A program made the position numbers and the translations under genes. 64,000 nucleotides of DNA, taken from a virus (Duplodnaviria > Caudoviricetes). The notes below the pieces were generated by a model, which had not been told where the DNA came from, searched no databases, and saw only the letters and a program-made list of their open reading frames with translations. Location of the stretch: the IMG/VR virus record IMGVR_UViG_3300028048_000077, positions 64,772 to 128,771 of that record; one strand, written 5' to 3'. Within the stretch, counting starts at the first letter, position 1. Each line of letters opens with the position of its first letter. This document shows, piece by piece, positions 12,271 through 58,039 of the stretch.

Positions 12271-12340
12271 AGCTACTCCTCTCCTCTTTAAAACAAAAAC
12301 TTAGTAAATTTTATAGGGAGTAGCATTTAAGCTACTCCCT

Positions 12341-12362
12341 ATTCATATATATAGTATATAAT
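12341..12362 (-). promoter_or_regulatory. putative early promoter
   Basis: TATATACTATATATATGAAT on the minus strand, followed by hairpin ATAGGGAGTAGC/GCTACTCCCTAT. Confidence 0.65.
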
Positions 12363-12383
12363 TAAAAAATATTTTACACCATC

Positions 12384-12415
12384 TATCCCTGTACCCAACT
12401 AAGGGTACAGGGATA
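12384..12415. terminator. conserved-stem hairpin
   Basis: TATCCCTGTACCC-AACTAA-GGGTACAGGGATA. Confidence 0.75.
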
Positions 12416-12832: not shown

Positions 12833-13111
12833 TCAAGTACTTCTTTTTATTGCTTCATTTAAAGCGTCTTTATTTAATTTATAAATTTGTTTATGTAATG
12901 GTGTTACTTCATTTCTATTTATATTATTCTCTTCAATTTCTTGATTAAGATACTCTAATATTCCTTGTCTACAATCTATTTGATTAGTACCAGGTTTATA
13001 TTCTTCTTGACAAATATTAATAATATTTTTTGTACAGTAGTTACATGTATTTTCTAATCTCCATTTTAAAAGCTCTTCTGGGGAAGATGCTATTTTCTGC
13101 CATCTCTTCAT
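12833..13111 (-). CDS. hypothetical Cys-containing protein
   Basis: AGGAGG RBS; CNYC motif. Confidence 0.65.
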   Translation of the reverse strand: MKRWQKIASSPEELLKWRLENTCNYCTKNIINICQEEYKPGTNQIDCRQGILEYLNQEIEENNINRNEVTPLHKQIYKLNKDALNEAIKRST

Positions 13112-13135
13112 TTATACCCCTCCTAAAAAAGAAAG

Positions 13136-13161
13136 TCTCTCTACTCATAAGAGTAGAGAGA
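13136..13161. terminator. conserved-stem hairpin
   Basis: TCTCTCTACTC-ATAA-GAGTAGAGAGA. Confidence 0.7.
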
Positions 13162-13167
13162 AAATTC

Positions 13168-13260
13168 TTAGTTATCTTTCTTCTTCAAACCAAGCATAAC
13201 CAGGTTAAATACTACGATGCCAACAATAGCACCAGTTAAAAGGATTACAAGATCACCCAT
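13168..13260 (-). CDS. 30-aa single-TM peptide (not in ORF track)
   Basis: GAGGT RBS; MGDLVILLTGAIVGIVVFNLVMLGLKKKDN. Confidence 0.65.
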   Translation of the reverse strand: MGDLVILLTGAIVGIVVFNLVMLGLKKKDN

Positions 13261-13280
13261 ATTATCTTACCTCTTTTCTA

Positions 13281-13811
13281 TTATTTATTCTCAATCCATG
13301 CTGGGCAAGGAGCAGTAACTTTAAGAGACTCATAGGCTCCAACTTTGCTCATGCCACGGCCATAGATCTTCTTACCATTACTATCAATACCTACAACCTT
13401 AGGGAATGGACGAGAAGATGCTTCAATCTCTTTAAGCTCAATTGCTACATTGCTCTTCTCACGGCCACCCATAGCAATTTTACGACCAGTGTGTACATAA
13501 GAGTTTACAAACTCCTTACTGATGTTTACCATGTTCTCAGCTTCAGAAGTTCCAAACTCATAGTTTACTGCAAGTGCATCAGCTTCAGTGTTACTAATGC
13601 CAGCAGAGTGCTGAAGAACAGAGGAAACAATCTGCTTAGCAGATTCAGCAGGACAATACTCACCAGTCTTACCAGACTTGTCATAGACAGCTACTTTGTA
13701 AGAAGTGTCATTGAGCATAGCCTTCATTACACGAACTTCGTCCTTCTTAGAGGAACTCTTCTGAGTAAGATTAGTCTTAATCTCGTTAATCAACTTTTCA
13801 ACTTTTTCCAT
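13281..13811 (-). CDS. hypothetical protein, probably highly expressed
   Basis: AGGAGG RBS; codon usage like the capsid gene. Confidence 0.75.
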   Translation of the reverse strand: MEKVEKLINEIKTNLTQKSSSKKDEVRVMKAMLNDTSYKVAVYDKSGKTGEYCPAESAKQIVSSVLQHSAGISNTEADALAVNYEFGTSEAENMVNISKEFVNSYVHTGRKIAMGGREKSNVAIELKEIEASSRPFPKVVGIDSNGKKIYGRGMSKVGAYESLKVTAPCPAWIENK

Positions 13812-13961
13812 TTTAGAAACCTCCTATATATGCATATATAATGGAACCATTATAACTAAGTCTATTGCTTAGTAACTTTTAACTCATCTAATCCTATTGG
13901 TTTCAATGCTTTCACGTCAATTGGAGTGGATTTTAAATCTATTTCACCCTCTTTTAACATT

Positions 13962-14129
13962 TCATTCTCTTTTAATTTCCTTGGTTTTATATTTTTCTCG
14001 TTCATCTTCAGTCAAATGGAAGAATACCTTAGGTAATTTTCCATGTTTTCCTTTCTCTAGAAGAAGTTTATCGAAATCTTCTCTAGAATATTTACATATC
14101 TCTTTAAAGAATTCTGTAGGCTTTGGCAT
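13962..14129 (-). CDS. 55-aa hypothetical protein (not in ORF track)
   Basis: GGTGGTG RBS; MPKPTEFFKEICKYSREDFDKLL... Confidence 0.55.
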   Translation of the reverse strand: MPKPTEFFKEICKYSREDFDKLLLEKGKHGKLPKVFFHLTEDEREKYKTKEIKRE

Positions 14130-14186
14130 AGCTTCACCACCTTCATTATATTATTGGCAAGGGTTTAGAAAAGTATTTTAAGATAA

Positions 14187-14221
14187 CAAAAAAGAAAGGG
14201 AAGCATTGTATTGCTTTCCCT
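14187..14221 (-). terminator. intrinsic terminator of the mini-peptide unit
   Basis: minus strand GGGAAAGCAA-TACA-ATGCTTCCC-TTTCTTTTTT. Confidence 0.7.
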
Positions 14222-14257
14222 TGAGGAATTACAAGCCAGTATGTTGGTGATATGATG

Positions 14258-14338
14258 CTAGAAAATTAAGAATTTTATCAATTCTATTATCAGACTTTCG
14301 ATTAAGCCCAATATGAATTGTATTAAAATCTTCATCAT
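14258..14338 (-). CDS. 26-aa amphipathic peptide, type I toxin-like
   Basis: AGAAAGGAGG RBS; MMKILIQFILGLIESLIIELIKFLIF; own promoter motif and terminator. Confidence 0.65.
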   Translation of the reverse strand: MMKILIQFILGLIESLIIELIKFLIF

Positions 14339-14402
14339 ATCATTAACCTCCTTTCTGCTGGCGTGAATAGGGTATAGAGTAGTTGGTGAAGAAGCTATAC
14401 CC

Positions 14403-14425
14403 TATTCATATCTATAGTATATAAC
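14403..14425 (-). promoter_or_regulatory. putative early promoter
   Basis: GTTATATACTATAGATATGAATA on the minus strand; 14-bp inverted repeat TGAATAGGGTATAG/CTATACCCTATTCA directly downstream. Confidence 0.65.
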
Positions 14426-14452
14426 TAAAAATAGTTAGTTTATCAGTATAAA

Positions 14453-14478
14453 TCCCTCTACCCAAATGGGTAGAGGGA
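14453..14478. terminator. conserved-stem hairpin
   Basis: TCCCTCTACCC-AAAT-GGGTAGAGGGA. Confidence 0.75.
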
Positions 14479-14484
14479 AATGTT

Positions 14485-14757
14485 TTAGTTAATAATCATA
14501 TTAATAAAATCTTTAATATCAATTCGTTTATTTTTATGTAATTCTTTAATAGTTTCTATTTTTTCTGGAATATTTTTTATAGTTTCATCTATAAGATGTT
14601 CTTTAATATCTAATATATCTATCCAAAAATTATTATCAAACTCAATTTCAATATATTTTGTATTAATTTCTTTACCTAATAATTTTCTTACATTAGTTAA
14701 TTTAGCTTTTGATATATCGATATGACTATTATAATCAAGATTAATAATACAACTCAT
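14485..14757 (-). CDS. hypothetical protein
   Basis: 90 aa ORF with AAGGTGG RBS. Confidence 0.6.
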   Translation of the reverse strand: MSCIINLDYNSHIDISKAKLTNVRKLLGKEINTKYIEIEFDNNFWIDILDIKEHLIDETIKNIPEKIETIKELHKNKRIDIKDFINMIIN

Positions 14758-14774
14758 AATTATTTTACCACCTT

Positions 14775-15545
14775 TTAATTAATACAATACATAATAGGCT
14801 GATTCTTGTTTGCTGGAGATACATAGGTTTCTTTAAGTTTATCCACAATATCTTGTCTTCTCTCTGCCTTATTCTGAAGATCACTTATCTTCATATCTGT
14901 ACCAGCAAATACAGTTTCTATTCCATCATAATATTTAAGATTTTCATATAGATAACTTGCTACATCTGCAATTGCAAGTTCTTCAAATGTTTCCATCTTA
15001 GTAGGAGCAATAGTCATAAGATTTGTACTATGCTTAACAAATAAACTAATAGGAATCTTAGTAAGGAAATTGAGCATACTATGATCTATAATACCACTAA
15101 GTTTAATCATATTAGGCTCAATATATTCTACATAAATACCATTTGAGAATACAGATACATGGTCAGCTATCATCTGAGTCATCATAATATCTTCAGCATC
15201 ATAAGAAGAAGATAATAAATCAAATGTACCCCATCCACCACCTAACTGATATGCTGGAGCTTTAGAAGAGAAATCATGCCAGTCTATATCACCAGCACCA
15301 AGTATCTTTACACTATTACATATATCTTCATCTATGATATAAGTATTACGAAACTTTTTATTTTCTGGACCCAGAATATATCTTATCTTATGTGGAAAGA
15401 AACGAGAGAAGGTATCTAATGTATCTCCATCTATTACTTCTACCCAAGTATCTTTTGCTAGATTATCTGGTAGATGTAGCATTTTTGTACCAATTCGACG
15501 CTCAATCTTATTCAAAAGATCAGTCATTCTATTATTCATTGGCAT
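14775..15545 (-). CDS. probable virion neck/head-completion-like protein
   Basis: GGAGG RBS; loose resemblance in size and C-terminal helix pattern to neck proteins; near the prohead protease. Confidence 0.4.
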   Translation of the reverse strand: MPMNNRMTDLLNKIERRIGTKMLHLPDNLAKDTWVEVIDGDTLDTFSRFFPHKIRYILGPENKKFRNTYIIDEDICNSVKILGAGDIDWHDFSSKAPAYQLGGGWGTFDLLSSSYDAEDIMMTQMIADHVSVFSNGIYVEYIEPNMIKLSGIIDHSMLNFLTKIPISLFVKHSTNLMTIAPTKMETFEELAIADVASYLYENLKYYDGIETVFAGTDMKISDLQNKAERRQDIVDKLKETYVSPANKNQPIMYCIN

Positions 15546-15565
15546 GGTAGTAAACCTCCAATCAA

Positions 15566-15587
15566 TTATATACTATATATATGAGTA
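15566..15587 (+). promoter_or_regulatory. putative early promoter
   Basis: TTATATACTATATATATGAGTA. Confidence 0.65.
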
Positions 15588-15606
15588 AGTAAGAAGGGAG
15601 AATCAT

Positions 15607-16359
15607 ATGTATAAACGAATTAAATTGTGGATCGATAAATCGTATGAAGCACTGAATGGTAAAATAAATAGAATACCAGCAGTTGGTTATACGATTAACT
15701 ATGATCCTAATGTAACTAAATTGGGTGGGGAGAACAATGCATATCTAACATTTTATTCTCAAACCATTCAAAAATTTCTTTGTAATAAACTTAGTACAGA
15801 GAAAGAATACAGAGCTATGACTGTAATTATTGTAGCACATGAGTTATCTCATATAGACCAAGCTATTGATTATGATAGATATTCTAATGATATTCAATAT
15901 GCTAGAGCTATAGAAGAAGATAATAATAAGCGTACTTTTATATGGCTATTAAATAATCTAGAATATGTAAATAGTATTATGTATGGTATTGATATACAGT
16001 TCATAATCAATTATGCTAGGAATTATAATGTAAATTTACAAAACAACGTAAATCTCTCTATTTATGATACTATACGTACACAAATAGAGCCTCTTATGAG
16101 TCAAGTAGCATGCAGATTTGACGATATGATCAATATCACACTAAGAATACTAAAAAACAACATACCAATCGATTATATAGTAAAAATCAATGGTAAACTT
16201 GGAAATACTGAATCTATTATGAATGCTTTAAGAGAAATATATAGATATAATAAGTATATGTTAAAAAATATATTACTTAATAATTCTATTCTCATTGAAG
16301 TATCTCTTGATGAAGAAGATTCATACATTACCAAACATATGCATTATTCAATAACTTAA
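15607..16359 (+). CDS. HExxH putative metallopeptidase
   Basis: VAHELSHIDQ plus downstream IEEDN. Confidence 0.55.
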   Translation: MYKRIKLWIDKSYEALNGKINRIPAVGYTINYDPNVTKLGGENNAYLTFYSQTIQKFLCNKLSTEKEYRAMTVIIVAHELSHIDQAIDYDRYSNDIQYARAIEEDNNKRTFIWLLNNLEYVNSIMYGIDIQFIINYARNYNVNLQNNVNLSIYDTIRTQIEPLMSQVACRFDDMINITLRILKNNIPIDYIVKINGKLGNTESIMNALREIYRYNKYMLKNILLNNSILIEVSLDEEDSYITKHMHYSIT

Positions 16360-16393
16360 AGAAAAAGAGTCCCAAGATGGGACTCTTTCTTTT

Positions 16394-17251
16394 TTATTTT
16401 AAGCAATAGTTCATAATCTCATTCTGTACATACTTCTCAAGTGGAACAAAGATTGTATCATAATTTTTATCTACTAATGTAACCATCTTACCATCTTCAG
16501 ATAGTGCAATACTCTGATAGAAACAATCAAAGTTCTCAATAATAGTTTGAATATTAGTAGACTCCTGTTTGATATAATCAATTACGTTCTTATTGGAGAA
16601 AGGAGCAATAATCTGGAATCCTTCCTCTACACCCTGGGTATTACCATATTCTTTAATCAGATCTTGATTAACCTTAAGCTTATATGGTTTATTCTGTAAC
16701 TCTGTACCCTCGGTTACAATCTTCTCCATATATGCAGTAGGATGAGAAGGATAGTATACTCTATCCCAAGTAATAACTCTAAGGTTATTTACATATGCCT
16801 TACCATTACGATTCTCAATAGAACCAAGAGCTCTAAGAGAGAATGAAGGCTTTTCACCATAACGAAGATCTTTATCAAACTCATCACCAAATTGGTTATT
16901 AGTACCACGGAACTGAGCTTTTACTTTATTTCCATCCATCCACAGTTTAGTATACTGAACCTGTACAAGTTTAGGCTCAATCTTAGCCTGACGAGCTAAA
17001 TCTTTAGCATCTGGATGACCAGCCTCACCTTTAAGATTACCAGTCTCAAGAAGCTCTTTAGTACGAGGAGTTACATAAATCTCTCTATATAAATCCTTAT
17101 GAGCATATACACGCTTATTACGGTTTAACTGCTCAGCCTCCTGAATGATACCCTCACCAATTACTCTATAACCATCATCATTCTTTATCTGGAACTCAAT
17201 CTCTTTTGCAGAAGATTCATTGATAATATATCCAATATTTGATACTGCCAT
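16394..17251 (-). CDS. prohead core (maturation) protease, T4 gp21-like
   Basis: NRNKRVY, GEAGHP, FSLRALGS and TWDRVYYPSH motifs. Confidence 0.9.
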   Translation of the reverse strand: MAVSNIGYIINESSAKEIEFQIKNDDGYRVIGEGIIQEAEQLNRNKRVYAHKDLYREIYVTPRTKELLETGNLKGEAGHPDAKDLARQAKIEPKLVQVQYTKLWMDGNKVKAQFRGTNNQFGDEFDKDLRYGEKPSFSLRALGSIENRNGKAYVNNLRVITWDRVYYPSHPTAYMEKIVTEGTELQNKPYKLKVNQDLIKEYGNTQGVEEGFQIIAPFSNKNVIDYIKQESTNIQTIIENFDCFYQSIALSEDGKMVTLVDKNYDTIFVPLEKYVQNEIMNYCLK

Positions 17252-22173: not shown

Positions 22174-22192
22174 CATATACTATATATATGAA
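22174..22192 (+). promoter_or_regulatory. putative early promoter (sRNA1)
   Basis: CATATACTATATATATGAA. Confidence 0.65.
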
Positions 22193-22311
22193 AAGGTACC
22201 CATTCCTTTTTGTGTTTTCCATTATTAATTATGAAATTTAATTTCATAATTAAACTCCTTTCATTATAAAATATCCCATTGGGGAGGGGGTATATTATCC
22301 CCTTATTTTTT
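22189..22311 (+). ncRNA. candidate small RNA 1 with anti-RBS/anti-AUG segment
   Basis: promoter motif, no sense ORF with RBS, TTCATAATTAAACTCCTTTC, terminator AGGGGG..CCCCTTATTTTTT. Confidence 0.55.
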
Positions 22312-22318
22312 ATATAAA

Positions 22319-22372
22319 TTGTAATATTCGGAAAATTTAAACATATACTATATATGTGAATAAAAGGATTCA
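22319..22372 (+). repeat. 54-bp promoter/5'-end block duplicated at 35824-35877
   Basis: 53/54 identity by manual alignment. Confidence 0.9.
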
Positions 22373-22455
22373 CCTCCTTTCTGTTTGTTCTTCTCATCTC
22401 CTTTCAATTCACCCATATGGGGAGGGGGCCTCATCAGCCCCCTTATTTTTTTTTT
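22357..22455 (+). ncRNA. candidate small RNA 2 with 16S rRNA 3'-end-like anti-SD
   Basis: promoter at 22342-22362; GGATTCACCTCCTTTCT plus a second CATCTCCTTTC; terminator AGGGGGC..GCCCCCTTA-T10. Confidence 0.6.
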
Positions 22456-22463
22456 CATAATAA

Positions 22464-22492
22464 ATCCCTCTACCCAATTAGGGTAGAGGGAT
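22464..22492. terminator. conserved-stem hairpin
   Basis: ATCCCTCTACCC-AATTA-GGGTAGAGGGAT. Confidence 0.75.
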
Positions 22493-27544: not shown

Positions 27545-27564
27545 TCATATATATAGTATATGTT
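27545..27564 (-). promoter_or_regulatory. putative early promoter
   Basis: minus strand AACATATACTATATATATGA. Confidence 0.65.
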
Positions 27565-37433: not shown

Positions 37434-39668
37434 TTAATCATTATCATCGCCAGGAAGTCCTCTAGCGTCACTAATATCTTTTTCATTATAATCTACTTTC
37501 ATTCTCCATTTCATCTTAGCATAATGACCTTGGAGCTTTTTCTTAATAAGCATAAGATGACGAACTCTTTCGAGATCATTATTATCTTCTGCTTGTTTAA
37601 TATATTTATCTACCATAACAAGTTCTACATCGAGTTCATTAATGAACTTCTGTCTTTCTTGTTTAAGATTTTTATTTCTCATAAGACCTACTGCAACGGC
37701 AGATATTAATGCAAGCCATGGATTAATGAAAGCTAAACCACCAAATCCAAGTACAAGCTTAATACACTTAGAAAGAGGTGGTAACCAATCTCCCTTAACG
37801 GCTGCTTCTCTATTACCATAACTTACAATACTATTAAACTTCTTTTCTACAGTTCTAGCATTAGCATCTATCTGATTTGAAATCATCTGTTGTTTTACAT
37901 CTAATTTGCCAAGACTAGATTTTACTTTATCTAATGCTATATCTACCATACTACTGATAGACATCTCATGAATATAACTATTCATAATATTAAGATCAAC
38001 TGATATTTCAGAGATAGTTCTAATTGCATCATATGGATTAGTATTTTCTTCAAATACAATTGGAGTACTTAAAAGATTCTTCATTTCATTAAATTTAGCT
38101 ATCTTAGAATAATCAGGATTATCAGATTTACGTTCTCTACGTACAGCCTCAGTAATCTGCCTCTTAACAGCTCTAGGCTCAATAAATTCAGGATACTTAC
38201 AAGCAAAATCTGTCATATATTGAGCATGATCAATATTATTAAACAAATGAGGCATCATTGTATTTTTATACGTTTCATATTGATCAAAATTATTAGCAAG
38301 ATCAATAATAGAATTTGCAATACTACTTGAGAAAGCATATACCATATCAGTATTTTCAAACTTCATATCGAAGTCTCCAAATTCATCTCCAGTCTTTTTA
38401 CCATTATAATCATCAGGACGGAGATCATATGCATCTTTCTCTTCATCATCTTTCATAGCATCATAATGACTTTCTAATCTATCAATACCATCATCTAATC
38501 CTTTGATATATTCTTTGAGTCTTTTTTTCTTTTCTTCATCTTTACAATCTTCTAACTGTTTAGCAGCCTTAGCCCTTTGTTTATGCCAAGATTTAAGAGC
38601 TTTCTTAGTAGATTTTCTAGTAAGATGAATACGAGTTAAAGTAGAAGCAATAAATGCAGCTATTCCAAGCCAAGGATTAATAGCAGTAGCTCCTACAGTA
38701 ATAAAGAAATGGAAACAAAGTGCTAAAAGGTTATTAGTCTCTACAATAACATCTTCTTCTCTACTAGTATTCATAAGAGTATGACAAATAGAATTTACAG
38801 TACTCTTAAATACAGAAACATTTTTATCTGGAAGAGATTTAAATTTTTCGATTATATTATTTATGATAGTTTTTGTGTCTACAGCTTCAAAGATACTTTC
38901 AATAGTTTCTTCTTTTACTGTATATACAAAGTTCTCTTTCAATCTATCAAGATAAGCAGTTTCATGAATGAATGGATTAGAATTGATCACATCTTTCATA
39001 ATATCAATCAATTCACCTTCTGTATCTTGCTCATTCAAATGATTGTATAAAAAGTAATCCGTTACAGCTTCTACAATCATAGAATCTTCATATGGAATAT
39101 AGTTTTTACTAAATACAAACTGGCATTCATTTAAACAAGTTTTATATTTAGTATTTACACCCATTTTATAAGTATCAATGAAGGAGCAGAGTTCATATAT
39201 ACATTCATATAGATTTTCAGAAGATGCTTTTTCTTGAACATAGCTATCCATATCAAATCTCATACAAAGATCTTCATGTGTTTTGATCATCATATCACAT
39301 TTCTTGATATCTGCTATTGCATCCATTACAGTATCAGTATTCTTTGTGAGTTTGATTATAGATTCTACATCTGCAAAGTTTTTCAAAGAAGATACATTTG
39401 ATTCGATAATTGATGTACATTCCTCTATCTGAGAAATATCTCCATGCTCATTTACCATATCAAATAATTCAAACATCTTATCTAAGCATTCTTCTTCAAT
39501 CATACTATAATCTTTCCAAGATTTAATAGCATCTTTGAGATTTTCATAATTATATTCTTCCTGATAAGAAGTATATAATGGATAACTTGCTAAATATTCA
39601 CCATATCTTGTTTTTACTTTTCTTTGCCGATTACGATTCATTACGGAAAGCATCGTTATTTCACTCAT
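37434..39668 (-). CDS. large virion protein with two related hydrophobic segments (possible ejection protein)
   Basis: GATAINPWLGIAAF and GLAFINPWLALISAV internal repeats; late motif at 39706-39718. Confidence 0.5.
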   Translation of the reverse strand: MSEITMLSVMNRNRQRKVKTRYGEYLASYPLYTSYQEEYNYENLKDAIKSWKDYSMIEEECLDKMFELFDMVNEHGDISQIEECTSIIESNVSSLKNFADVESIIKLTKNTDTVMDAIADIKKCDMMIKTHEDLCMRFDMDSYVQEKASSENLYECIYELCSFIDTYKMGVNTKYKTCLNECQFVFSKNYIPYEDSMIVEAVTDYFLYNHLNEQDTEGELIDIMKDVINSNPFIHETAYLDRLKENFVYTVKEETIESIFEAVDTKTIINNIIEKFKSLPDKNVSVFKSTVNSICHTLMNTSREEDVIVETNNLLALCFHFFITVGATAINPWLGIAAFIASTLTRIHLTRKSTKKALKSWHKQRAKAAKQLEDCKDEEKKKRLKEYIKGLDDGIDRLESHYDAMKDDEEKDAYDLRPDDYNGKKTGDEFGDFDMKFENTDMVYAFSSSIANSIIDLANNFDQYETYKNTMMPHLFNNIDHAQYMTDFACKYPEFIEPRAVKRQITEAVRRERKSDNPDYSKIAKFNEMKNLLSTPIVFEENTNPYDAIRTISEISVDLNIMNSYIHEMSISSMVDIALDKVKSSLGKLDVKQQMISNQIDANARTVEKKFNSIVSYGNREAAVKGDWLPPLSKCIKLVLGFGGLAFINPWLALISAVAVGLMRNKNLKQERQKFINELDVELVMVDKYIKQAEDNNDLERVRHLMLIKKKLQGHYAKMKWRMKVDYNEKDISDARGLPGDDND

Positions 39669-47197: not shown

Positions 47198-47204
47198 CAC
47201 AATA

Positions 47205-47234
47205 TATCCCTCTACCCCGAAAGGTAGAGGGATA
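47205..47234. terminator. conserved-stem hairpin
   Basis: TATCCCTCTACC-CCGAAA-GGTAGAGGGATA. Confidence 0.75.
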
Positions 47235-47257
47235 CACTGCTGGTAAATTTGATTTTA

Positions 47258-47280
47258 GTTATATACTATATATATGAATA
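47258..47280 (+). promoter_or_regulatory. putative early promoter
   Basis: GTTATATACTATATATATGAATA plus 5' hairpin TGAATAGATATA/TATATTTATTCA. Confidence 0.65.
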
Positions 47281-47333
47281 GATATAGAGCAATTATATTT
47301 ATTCAAAGTATATAACGAAAGAAGGTGTTTACC

Positions 47334-47432
47334 ATGTTTCTAATTAGTAGGATGAAAGATATACTAGACATTTTGATTCTTATATCTAACATCATAGAAC
47401 TAATAGAAATATTGAAAATCTTCTGTAATTAA
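47334..47432 (+). CDS. 32-aa amphipathic peptide, type I toxin-like
   Basis: GAAGGTG RBS; MFLISRMKDILDILILISNIIELIEILKIFCN. Confidence 0.55.
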   Translation: MFLISRMKDILDILILISNIIELIEILKIFCN

Positions 47433-47543
47433 TTGTTACTAAAATAATAAAGTTATATACTAAAGAAATTACTTATCTTTAACAAAAACTTCTTCTTGGG
47501 ATAAGATAATATATAGATACTACGAAAGAAGAAAATAAACTTA

Positions 47544-47573
47544 TACCCCTCTACCGTAATGGTAGAGGGGTAC
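47544..47573. terminator. conserved-stem hairpin
   Basis: TACCCCTCTACC-GTAAT-GGTAGAGGGGTA. Confidence 0.75.
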
Positions 47574-47576
47574 ATA

Positions 47577-47894
47577 TTACCAAGATACTATTATTTTTTC
47601 ATTTTCGAATAATACATTATATCCATATTTTTCATCTTCTAATATAGATTTTATATCTGGATATACTGTTTTAAAATCTATATTTTTAAAATAAGATTTA
47701 AAAGTAGATGAATCGCAATTTTCTAAATCAAACTCACATGAAAATTTTCCAGATTGAGCTTTCTTTACACAAGCATCTATTATAAATATCATAATATTAT
47801 CAAATACTTTTTCTTTCTCTGTATCTCTTACATGTTTGGAAATTTCATGTAAATCTTTTGCTGGTATTACTTTGAAACTTAAATCTTTTTTCAT
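47577..47894 (-). CDS. hypothetical protein
   Basis: GAGGT RBS; MKKDLSF...IVSW. Confidence 0.65.
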   Translation of the reverse strand: MKKDLSFKVIPAKDLHEISKHVRDTEKEKVFDNIMIFIIDACVKKAQSGKFSCEFDLENCDSSTFKSYFKNIDFKTVYPDIKSILEDEKYGYNVLFENEKIIVSW

Positions 47895-55905: not shown

Positions 55906-56745
55906 TTACTTAAGCATATCTTCACTGATAAGAGAATATGAAACCACATATACTTTACCATTTTCAAATCTACTAAGAAAATAATTTGATTGTATCTTAT
56001 CTAAATCAATGTCTTTTTTATATTCTACTACAGAAAGATTTGTATATGGAGCACCAACAAAAAGTTCAAATTCTTCTTTAGATAAAGTATTAGGATCTAA
56101 ACTAGAGATTCCCAAAGAAGCATCTATATCTTTTTGCATAATCTGTAATAGATCATGTATAGATTCAGGACCATAAATTTCTCCATGATATTCATGCTTA
56201 AGAGAGTTTGCTTTAAAATTCTTAAAGTTATTCTCCATCATTCTATTAATCTTATCCTTATCATCAGATAATAGATTCTCGATATCTTCAATACTATCAT
56301 CAAGATATGAATTAATCATAATAGTAGAATGAACTTTAGAAGCAGATAAGAACAAAGATAACTCTTTATTCTCAATAGCATTTGTAATATAATCTCCTAA
56401 TATTATCTTATCTACATTCTTATCATTTAATATCATCTGTCTACCAATAATATTAGGTACAGGAGCAGGTTTCTCCATATCTTCTTTTCTCATAACATAG
56501 AGAATTATATCATTCTGAGCCTTAGAAGTAGATACAAGAGAAATACAATATAAAGCATCAGGGATTAAAGTACTATACTCAGATAATTCTTTCTTATTAA
56601 GAGTAAATACTTTATCATTAGACTCATCTTTACATTCTATTTTATTTTCATTCAGAACTTTTATTACTCTAAATGCATTGGTAATATCTGTATCTGAATT
56701 ATATTTAAAGAATCTCTTACCAGTAATTACATCATACTTATTCAA
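55906..56745 (-). CDS. hypothetical protein
   Basis: 279 aa; TTG start with GGAG RBS. Confidence 0.7.
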   Translation of the reverse strand: MNKYDVITGKRFFKYNSDTDITNAFRVIKVLNENKIECKDESNDKVFTLNKKELSEYSTLIPDALYCISLVSTSKAQNDIILYVMRKEDMEKPAPVPNIIGRQMILNDKNVDKIILGDYITNAIENKELSLFLSASKVHSTIMINSYLDDSIEDIENLLSDDKDKINRMMENNFKNFKANSLKHEYHGEIYGPESIHDLLQIMQKDIDASLGISSLDPNTLSKEEFELFVGAPYTNLSVVEYKKDIDLDKIQSNYFLSRFENGKVYVVSYSLISEDMLK

Positions 56746-56811
56746 TACTATCTCTCCCTCTTAATGTGATTATATATAAGTATCTACAGTAGTTAAATTT
56801 AACACAAAAAA

Positions 56812-56836
56812 TCCCCGTACCAAGAAGGTACGGGGA
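56812..56836 (-). terminator. conserved-stem hairpin
   Basis: TCCCCGTACC-AAGAA-GGTACGGGGA. Confidence 0.75.
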
Positions 56837-56842
56837 ATAATA

Positions 56843-58039
56843 TTAAGGATTCTGAGGATTTTGACCAGGAGCAGGTTGCTGAGGTTGTGGATTCTGAGTA
56901 GCAGGCTGTTGCTGTTGTTGCATATACTCATTACGAGGACACACAGTCTGAAGAATCTTAATATAATCATTATAAATTATATTAGAAGAACGTAAACGAG
57001 CATTCAGAATTGCAGTAGCTACATTCTGAATAGCTCCCATATACATTCCCATAGATTGAGTCTTTTGTTGTTCCTGTGATGCAGCCTGTTTATCAATCTT
57101 TACACCAGAAGTATCTACAGCTTTATCATTCTGACCAAGGCCAGTTATTGGTTTAGTTTCTGCAGGAGGATTCTGTCCTTGAGCAGCATTAGCTGCTTGA
57201 GCTGGTGCAGTTTGAGCTGGTGGTTGATTATCTGCTTCATTAAATACTGATTCAAGAATACTCTTATACTGATAAGCCTTATGACGTATATCAGCTTTAG
57301 AATAATCAGTAGAAGCATTAACATTTTGCTGTTTAGTTGTTGGTGGATTTGTATTTGGTTGTGGAGTAGGATTTATACCTTGAACTGCTTTACCAATTAA
57401 ACCAAGGATATTATTTATATCATTATTTATCTGACCCAATTGTTTTGGAAAATCCAAACACCAAGTTACTATACCATCCATATTAAGTTGATTTACATTT
57501 GTATTAATCTTCTGAGAATTCCCATTTCCACCCTGGAAATAATTTAAACAAAATTGATCAAACTTAATTTGTCCCTGAGGATTAAATCCATCCATCATAA
57601 ATTTCTGTATATTAGCAATACATTCATCTTTATTATCTGCTTTAACTGTATCATACATCTCTGGTTTAAATTTACTAAAAATATTATTCATATTTTTAAT
57701 ATTATTAATACCATTTTCATATGGTTGCATTTCTAAAGGAATATTTTTACTTTTAGCAACTTCTGCTACTTTAGGTTGGATAGCTTTAAGATAAGCTTCA
57801 TCATGTTTATTTTGAATTTGTTTCTTAGTATACTCAACAAATTTAGTTACCATATTTGTAAATATTGTTTTAATCTTACCCATCATCTCAGTAGAATTAA
57901 ACTCTTCTAAGATAATCTGATTAATCTGCTCTTCAGTGAGTACATTAGTAGATTCATCTAATCTCTTCATAGCATTTTGTACTCTAGCTTTATTTGCAGC
58001 ATAATGTATATATGCAGCATCTCTAACTAAATTATTCAT
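56843..58039 (-). CDS. probable internal head protein
   Basis: LxE propeptide then amphipathic KIKTIF helix; Q/P-rich linkers. Confidence 0.55.
   Translation of the reverse strand: MNNLVRDAAYIHYAANKARVQNAMKRLDESTNVLTEEQINQIILEEFNSTEMMGKIKTIFTNMVTKFVEYTKKQIQNKHDEAYLKAIQPKVAEVAKSKNIPLEMQPYENGINNIKNMNNIFSKFKPEMYDTVKADNKDECIANIQKFMMDGFNPQGQIKFDQFCLNYFQGGNGNSQKINTNVNQLNMDGIVTWCLDFPKQLGQINNDINNILGLIGKAVQGINPTPQPNTNPPTTKQQNVNASTDYSKADIRHKAYQYKSILESVFNEADNQPPAQTAPAQAANAAQGQNPPAETKPITGLGQNDKAVDTSGVKIDKQAASQEQQKTQSMGMYMGAIQNVATAILNARLRSSNIIYNDYIKILQTVCPRNEYMQQQQQPATQNPQPQQPAPGQNPQNP

Follow-up and report, generated by a model that had tools for sequence, protein, structure and literature searches.

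Type I toxins are small (below about 60 amino acids, aa), hydrophobic, helical membrane peptides, and their mRNAs can hide the Shine-Dalgarno sequence (SD) and the start codon in a cis-inhibitory fold. TisB of the E. coli pair TisB/IstR-1 is a helix with a narrow charged strip (PMC8309996), and in hok/Sok of plasmid R1 and aapA1/IsoA1 of Helicobacter pylori a structured mRNA buries the initiation region by long-range pairing. Orphan genes of T4-like phages are shuffled by PeSL cassettes (promoter-early stem-loop; PMC2839356, PMC4122927), and in the early promoters of the virion RNA polymerase (RNAP) of the Bacillus jumbo phage AR9 an AT-rich element is conserved, followed six nt downstream by G+1 (PMC5312081). 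Here, we analyzed a locus that recalls these systems, called cassette C, on the minus strand at positions 14187-14425 of a 64,000-nt stretch of phage DNA (called the window; positions 64,772 to 128,771 of the IMG/VR record IMGVR_UViG_3300028048_000077). Coordinates are those of the window unless a genome name precedes them. The record (128,771 nt, 30% GC, approximately 52% complete, with the window as its right half) is about half of the genome of a jumbo phage that encodes a multisubunit RNA polymerase of its own; the beta subunit of such a polymerase and a jumbo-phage-type major head protein were matched among its proteins.

Like TisB/IstR-1 and DinQ/AgrB of E. coli, cassette C and its paralogs encode peptides of 26-39 aa with the profile of a single hydrophobic helix carrying a narrow polar or charged strip (as in TisB, PMC8309996), and, as in hok/Sok and aapA1/IsoA1, the mRNA of cassette C is predicted to be structured, with long-range pairing that buries the initiation region. 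Its design appears to be that of a type I toxin gene set in a lytic jumbo phage, where such a firm combination of gene anatomy and signs of selection is uncommon; we infer its function, and the family so far belongs to one phage lineage. Taken as a whole, cassette C could well be an early monocistronic micro-gene on a PeSL-like cassette, which would encode a membrane helix on a self-closing, long-lived mRNA, a reading that we put forward tentatively. The elements on which it is built are the following.

14453-14478, minus strand: bidirectional terminator stem-loop of the upstream 90-aa gene, found by the terminator scan; left edge of the duplicated cassette.
14407-14421, minus strand: early-promoter motif, consisting of a 9-nt AT-rich core (14421-14413), 5 nt and the putative +1 G (14407).
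14364-14408, minus strand: 5'-terminal hairpin of 14 pairs (13 if the start is 14407) with a 17-nt loop, from predicted folds.
14358-14362, minus strand: 5' strand of the outer closing helix, pairing with 14235-14239 (5 of 5 complementary) in the minimum free energy (MFE) fold.
14346-14356, minus strand: extended SD of 11 nt, whose core ends 8 nt before the ATG (14338).
14333-14342, minus strand: start-codon region and 5' strand of the inner closing helix, pairing with 14248-14257 (exact 10 of 10 reverse complement).
14258-14338, minus strand: open reading frame (ORF) of 26 codons plus TAG, the only ORF of at least 20 aa on either strand between 14190 and 14480.
14235-14257, minus strand: segment of the 3' untranslated region (3' UTR) with the 3' strands of both closing helices (14248-14257 and 14235-14239), from complementarity and folds.
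14187-14222, minus strand: intrinsic terminator, whose hairpin (14222-14196) has a 10-bp stem with one bulged base and precedes a T-run; it bounds the duplicated cassette on the right.

A preliminary description of this DNA had placed a promoter, a 5' hairpin, an SD, an ORF and a terminator in 14187-14425, and direct reading of the sequence bore out all five. The complementarities that it listed between the 3' UTR and the start region (14248-14257 with 14333-14342, and 14235-14239 with 14358-14362) are likewise exact. An 8-nt word whose recurrence it had noticed, and which lies in the hairpin loop and again in the 3' UTR, is at chance level, as about one such same-sense 8-mer pair is expected by our own arithmetic in a 225-nt RNA of the same composition. 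The +1 position at G14407 is putative and follows from the layout of the AR9 promoters.

The 26-codon ORF is very probably a real gene, judged from its substitution pattern and its retention in diverged copies. A search of the record itself returned a second copy, cassette A, which is 72-74% identical to C. Across 25 aligned codons, C and A differ by 7.0 synonymous changes at 13.8 sites and 8.0 non-synonymous changes at 61.2 sites (proportions pS 0.51 and pN 0.13), giving a dN/dS of 0.17, and the replacements are conservative. Identity between the two is 77% in the ORF and 91% in the terminator, against 37-44% in the leader and 3' UTR. The homology (14184-14485, 74%) runs exactly from terminator to terminator and excludes the flanking genes: it begins at the stem-loop 14453-14478, which is part of a repeated stem-loop and early-promoter module, and stops at 14184, at the intrinsic terminator.

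Reading of the genome for the promoter motif, together with a peptide profile, identified further members, so that there are at least five paralogous, phage-specific cassettes by sequence comparison.

Cassette C, 14258-14338, minus strand: 26 aa.
Cassettes A and B, G000 56350-56850, minus strand: 29 aa (A) and 34 aa (B, directly behind A), from sequence and profile.
Cassette D, window 47201-47640 (unit near 47262-47440), plus strand: 32 aa.
Cassette E, G000 38160-38560, plus strand: 39 aa.

They share one plan (stem-loop terminator, early promoter, 5' hairpin, very long SD, ORF of 26-39 codons, terminator), and all five peptides are Ile/Leu-rich helices with a common acidic position within an I-I-E/D-L-I-like core. 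The five copies keep the ORF and a correctly spaced SD and ATG though their nucleotide sequences are largely unalignable. With approximately 8% stops per random codon at 30% GC, the joint chance that five frames of 26-39 codons stay open behind an SD is about 2e-6 by our own arithmetic, a figure that is only rough because the copies are not fully independent. Intergenic small ORFs led by an SD and lying outside long ORFs number seven in the genome, four of which belong to this family. Four of the five cassettes (A/B, D and E) lie at convergent gene junctions with nothing downstream, which indicates that the cassettes are monocistronic units and not leader peptides. The 3' UTR preceding the terminator measures about 35 nt in C and about 110-120 nt in D and E, where the terminator is shared with the convergent gene. 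The view of C as a stand-alone gene therefore stands insofar as it is a real, self-contained micro-gene (dN/dS 0.17, ORF and SD retained in five diverged copies); it has to be corrected in that C is one of five paralogous cassettes and not a single gene.

The early-promoter motif occurs in about 25 copies, before ordinary early genes and before ORF-less units resembling small RNAs (sRNAs), and resembles the virion-RNAP promoters of AR9 in its layout of an AT-rich block and a G. At 13 of the 25 early promoters a stable hairpin begins within 3 nt of the putative +1 G, from which it follows that the 5' hairpin, like the promoter, is generic to the early RNAs of this phage, and the two features weaken as marks of a special design in C. 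In view of the 5'-end-dependent decay of RNA in Gram-positive bacteria, the 5' hairpin is most simply read as a stabilizer, not a toxin-specific device. At one early promoter, on the minus strand at position 27545, the extended SD word starts at the putative +1, with neither a 5' hairpin nor a leader.

The segment of stem-loop and promoter at 14392-14490 matches many loci, and the module is found at at least 13 places in the genome. As in PeSL cassettes, composites of a stem-loop terminator and an early promoter recur between genes, variable genome regions contain small orphan genes flanked by the modules, and the boundaries of the C/A duplication coincide with modules or terminators, the family being absent from four relatives. 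Two differences set them apart: the phage motif is without the -35/-10 layout of the sigma-70-type promoter of PeSLs, and, whereas PeSLs imply nothing about their cargo, the cargo here is one peptide family with a co-evolving mRNA fold. By analogy with PeSLs, recombination at the recurring terminator/promoter modules seems to have distributed the cassettes over the genome. Examples of the composite module are found at window positions 12329-12413, 14392-14490, 22451-22491 and 47201-47281, and the earliest transcribed bases that follow the putative +1 G are conserved as well.

The second line of evidence comes from the predicted RNA fold. Both long-range helices of C occur in the MFE and centroid folds, and the whole unit is more stable than dinucleotide shuffles (z = -5.5). 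In the alignment of C and A (MAFFT), all 58 consensus pairs are standard in both sequences. Nine of them have changed on both sides: the closing helix between leader and 3' UTR accounts for three (of its five pairs), the 5' hairpin for two, the start-codon helix and the terminator for one each, and other parts of the structure for the last two. When the partners were slid by 1-3 columns as a control, 35-46% of positions paired and 0-2 two-sided pairs were left. The closing helix thus co-varies in the nearest paralog, as the preliminary description would have it. Native codons give a more stable leader-ORF-tail fold than synonymous recodings drawn from phage codon usage in all five cassettes (z between -2.4 and -3.8); among 45 control gene starts the mean z was -0.9, and 16% reached -2.4. 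Duplexes between leader and tail were compared with dinucleotide-shuffled tails, yielding p = 0.068 (C), 0.008 (A), 0.116 (B), 0.0085 (D) and 0.39 (E), and a combined p of 6e-4 (Fisher) for the five paralogs. According to these models, the closed-loop fold has probably been under selection.

To quantify how firmly the start site is closed, we calculated the energy required to open positions -16 to +6 and compared it with 107 control start sites (mean 6.7 kcal/mol, 95th percentile 12.1 kcal/mol). The opening cost was 13.7 kcal/mol for C, 13.9 for D and 16.4 for E, within the top 3-4% of the controls, and 7.5 for A and 5.7 for B. For RNAs of C that end at or before the stop codon the cost was 2.4-5.9 kcal/mol; adding the first 15 nt past the stop raised it from 3.9 to 11.2 kcal/mol, and with more sequence it reached 13.3-13.7 kcal/mol. 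In silico folding of the full-length versus the 3'-trimmed RNA hence agrees with the earlier proposal that the 3' UTR closes the initiation region (2.4-5.9 to 11-14 kcal/mol). The mode of closure differs by paralog: D closes via its last codons, and E via a local anti-SD hairpin present from the start of transcription. As a design of the family, the sequestered start is strong in C, D and E and absent in A and B; the cis-inhibitory fold of type I mRNAs, hiding SD and start, is thus predicted for C and not for A or B.

The peptide of C consists of 73% I/L/F/V/M, has no proline and carries a net charge of zero. Its polar residues at 3, 7, 11, 14, 15, 19 and 22 form a narrow stripe with a spacing of 3-4, and a similar stripe is seen in the other four peptides. 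The best 18-residue window has a helical moment of 0.41 at a mean hydrophobicity of 0.66. It had been described as an amphipathic, hydrophobic peptide, which holds in the form of a very hydrophobic helix with a narrow polar stripe (whole-length moment p = 0.15). At the level of sequence it has the size and character of a small hydrophobic helical membrane peptide as found among type I toxins, and its profile may be that of a membrane-embedded, possibly oligomerizing helix. On the same grounds a location in the membrane is rather likely, and a toxin-like depolarizing action, by analogy with the known toxins, is possible if doubtful.

Searches of Pfam, NCBIfam and PHROG at E values up to 10 returned no family apart from a match to the alpha-type phenol-soluble modulin (PSM) model NF033427 (12.3 bits, E 0.17, cut-off 33 bits). 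Kinship with the PSMs was rejected, the score being far under the 33-bit cut-off. The peptide shares with PSMs and delta-toxin a length of about 20-26 aa, helicity and the lack of a signal peptide; it differs in being far more hydrophobic (73% I/L/F/V/M) with a narrow polar face, and for this reason looks membrane-integral and not like a soluble surfactant. A language-model look-up with the peptide of paralog D placed the DinQ (0.79) and TisB (0.76) clusters nearest, which lie under the 0.9 level and provide a lead only.

Put together, these features suggest the following course of events. The mRNA would be stabilized by its 5' hairpin and 3' terminator. On the nascent RNA the start site would be free, allowing brief translation; once transcribed, the first bases past the stop would pair with the start-codon region and the leader and bury the start. 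Each transcript would then be stored in the closed form, so that a low dose of membrane-active peptide would be made, which would insert into the host cytoplasmic membrane like the small type I toxins TisB and DinQ. Such a burst-then-lock behavior might serve host takeover or the exclusion of rivals. If so, the locus would offer a tractable model of burst-then-lock translation timed by the order in which the RNA is made; it would also be a new source of small peptides active on membranes and illustrate the dispersal of mini-genes by terminator/promoter modules in jumbo-phage genomes. A multi-copy family of this kind suggests that lytic phages use the design logic of type I toxins (a tiny helix and a self-locking mRNA) without an antisense partner. 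Gene callers skip such short genes and so leave the early host-takeover genes of giant phages largely uncharted at the micro-gene scale.

Several observations weigh against the reading of C as a self-locking gene for a membrane-active peptide. The start sites of A and B are not occluded and D and E are locked by other means, so that the lock is not a uniform trait of the family. The covariation comes from two sequences, and the structure was taken from the same alignment. For C alone, the complementarity between leader and tail is moderate (p = 0.068 versus shuffles). The helical moment over the whole length of the peptide is not significant versus shuffles (p = 0.15), and depolarization early in infection would seem costly to a phage that needs the energy of its host. 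In the four nearest jumbo-phage relatives, searched by DNA and by profile, terminator and promoter words are shared and the peptide family was not found, and among 1.84 billion representative proteins a profile search recovered paralog E itself and nothing else. There is no selection signal at the population level either, since all metagenome copies are identical: four contigs of other samples carry C and others A/B and E, all at 100% identity, and a divergent strain is also identical to the window across 13900-16800.

Further searches for relatives gave no lead. A blastn search of 13000-16000 against the phage collection returned no match, nor did an exact look-up of the family outside the phage. 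An exact or degenerate 18-nt coding pattern had at least 117 matches in IMG/VR, all of them unrelated small frames in AT-rich DNA, and the closest relative, scanned for small ORFs led by an SD and lying between genes, contained none of comparable kind. The failure to find homologues is weak evidence, because proteins below 30 aa are rarely called.

The alternative that survives best keeps the gene and changes the role of its product: the peptide would not be a toxin but a small membrane-embedded modulator or assembly factor, and the fold would mainly resist host RNases. The peptide might bind or inhibit a host membrane protein, act in superinfection exclusion or belong to the membranes of early infection. 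We consider this account unlikely as it stands, yet a serious contender, and the coding and hydrophobic character fit it as they fit the main reading. The frequency of hairpins at +1 among early transcripts suggests a general stabilizing device, and the ordinary accessibility of A and B, together with their very strong SDs, fits high and not throttled expression; the lack of a detected antitoxin RNA points the same way. Against it stand the start sites of C, D and E, which are among the 3-4% most occluded, and the covariation of the closing helix that brackets start site and ORF; the peptide also has no recognizable partner motif or family match.

The comparison with type I systems is less clear-cut where an antitoxin would be expected. 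Unlike their toxins, the peptide is not homologous in sequence to a described family (Hok, Fst/Ldr, TisB, DinQ, Ibs, ShoB, TxpA/BsrG and others) by the searches above, and the cassettes lack a detectable cis-antisense gene or conserved antisense promoter. Type I loci are found on chromosomes, plasmids or prophages under stress control, whereas the cassettes occur in five copies behind an early phage promoter in a lytic-type jumbo phage. Also unlike hok and aapA1, the 3' strand of the lock in C lies upstream of the terminator hairpin, for which reason activation by 3' trimming is not obviously possible, and paralogs A and B have no such lock. A single sigma-70-like site, with an extended -10, is located shortly beyond the stop on the plus strand (14228-14256). 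Every cassette region had as many promoter-like sites as shuffling predicts, and the paralogs conserve no equivalent of this one; a conserved antisense promoter was consequently dropped as a candidate. The phage early motif was never found antisense to the cassettes, and an Rfam search of the RNA returned no family and nothing near threshold. The likeness to type I toxins that the preliminary description had seen is accordingly retained for the peptide and the mRNA design, and no antitoxin RNA or known toxin family was found to go with it.

A trans-acting partner was considered in sRNA2 (22342-22455, plus strand), part of which resembles the 3' end of Gram-positive 16S rRNA. The match of about 14 pairs reported between the SD region of C and sRNA2 is real; it is a long SD facing a sequence like the 16S 3' end, and is generic. 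Its best predicted partners are the few phage start sites with the longest SDs, four of them cassettes: the start regions of C, A, B and E outscore 97-100% of 107 control starts in pairing with sRNA2, the score of B deriving in part from pairing to the sRNA2 terminator stem. The 9-nt SD core occurs nine times in the genome, four of these at cassettes. This rank follows from the unusually long SDs of the cassettes and the 16S-like character of sRNA2, and the pairing between sRNA2 and the cassettes is an enrichment and not a specificity. That the five mRNAs and the 16S-mimicking sRNA2 form a trans-acting, type I-like circuit in a lytic jumbo phage is a long shot. In such a circuit the extended SDs would be bound by either ribosomes or the mimic sRNA2, producing a timed pulse of membrane-active peptides; its purpose might be rival-phage exclusion or the shutdown of host functions, or else the mRNAs might titrate sRNA2.

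A related proposal dispenses with the peptide and makes the RNA itself the product, a structured early small RNA acting as SD decoy or as sponge or partner of sRNA2, with an ORF that is incidental or weakly used. Its promoter/terminator style is indeed shared with the ORF-less sRNA-like units at 22174-22455, pairing with sRNA2 puts four of the five cassette starts in the top 0-3%, and there is RNA structure with co-varying helices beyond what the peptide sequence requires. It is improbable all the same: the dN/dS of 0.17, an ORF far more conserved than the UTRs and the retention of open frames with spaced SD and ATG in five largely unalignable copies speak for translation, and the long SD accounts for the match to sRNA2, which other strong SDs share.

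Cassette C is the only one of the five with same-strand genes downstream, which raises the alternative of a leader peptide or attenuator controlling read-through into the 55-aa, 32/47-aa and 176-aa genes. These genes have no early-promoter motif of their own (none was found on the minus strand between 14407 and 12358), and the cassette terminator lies about 60 nt before the next gene. Such a role is nevertheless very improbable, given that A/B, D and E sit at convergent junctions without a downstream cistron, that the MFE and centroid folds show no antiterminator pairing with the terminator arms and that conservation acts on the peptide sequence itself. That the ORF arose by chance in a repeated intergenic terminator/promoter spacer is scarcely credible: the AT-rich DNA, the shortness of the ORF and the lack of a gene call in any metagenome contig would fit it, whereas purifying selection, an SD in all five paralogs and the share of the family among the SD-led intergenic small ORFs contradict it, and an absent gene call says little about an 81-nt frame, which is under the usual length limit of gene callers.

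The surroundings of cassette C place it in a variable stretch of the genome. The closest relatives in IMG/VR are phages of 216-261 kb whose head proteins are 46-59% identical. In the nearest of them (G001), the conserved 280-, 252- and 256-aa genes beside cassette C are also present; after the 256-aa virion gene there follow unrelated genes on the opposite strand, with no cassette region at that position. The 90-aa gene flanks C upstream, and on its 3' side lie minus-strand genes of 55, 32/47, 176, 30, 92 and 118 aa (14129-13962 onward to 12455), which may be transcribed by read-through of the cassette terminator or from another promoter class. One of them, the 30-aa ORF at 13168-13260 (minus strand, terminator 13161-13136), has one transmembrane stretch of the classic type and a C-terminal tail rich in Lys. 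It is a separate ORF, called as a gene in metagenome contigs and unrelated to the micropeptide family, and it resembles a textbook small membrane or type I toxin-like protein more than the 26-aa peptide does.

A strain from another sample (L168) is identical to the window at about 13900-16800 and differs from it leftward of about 13850 by 10-139 differences per 200 nt, suggesting a recombination breakpoint just downstream of cassette C and the 55-aa gene. At this divergence the length of a sigma-region-4-like gene also varies (353 versus 395 aa).

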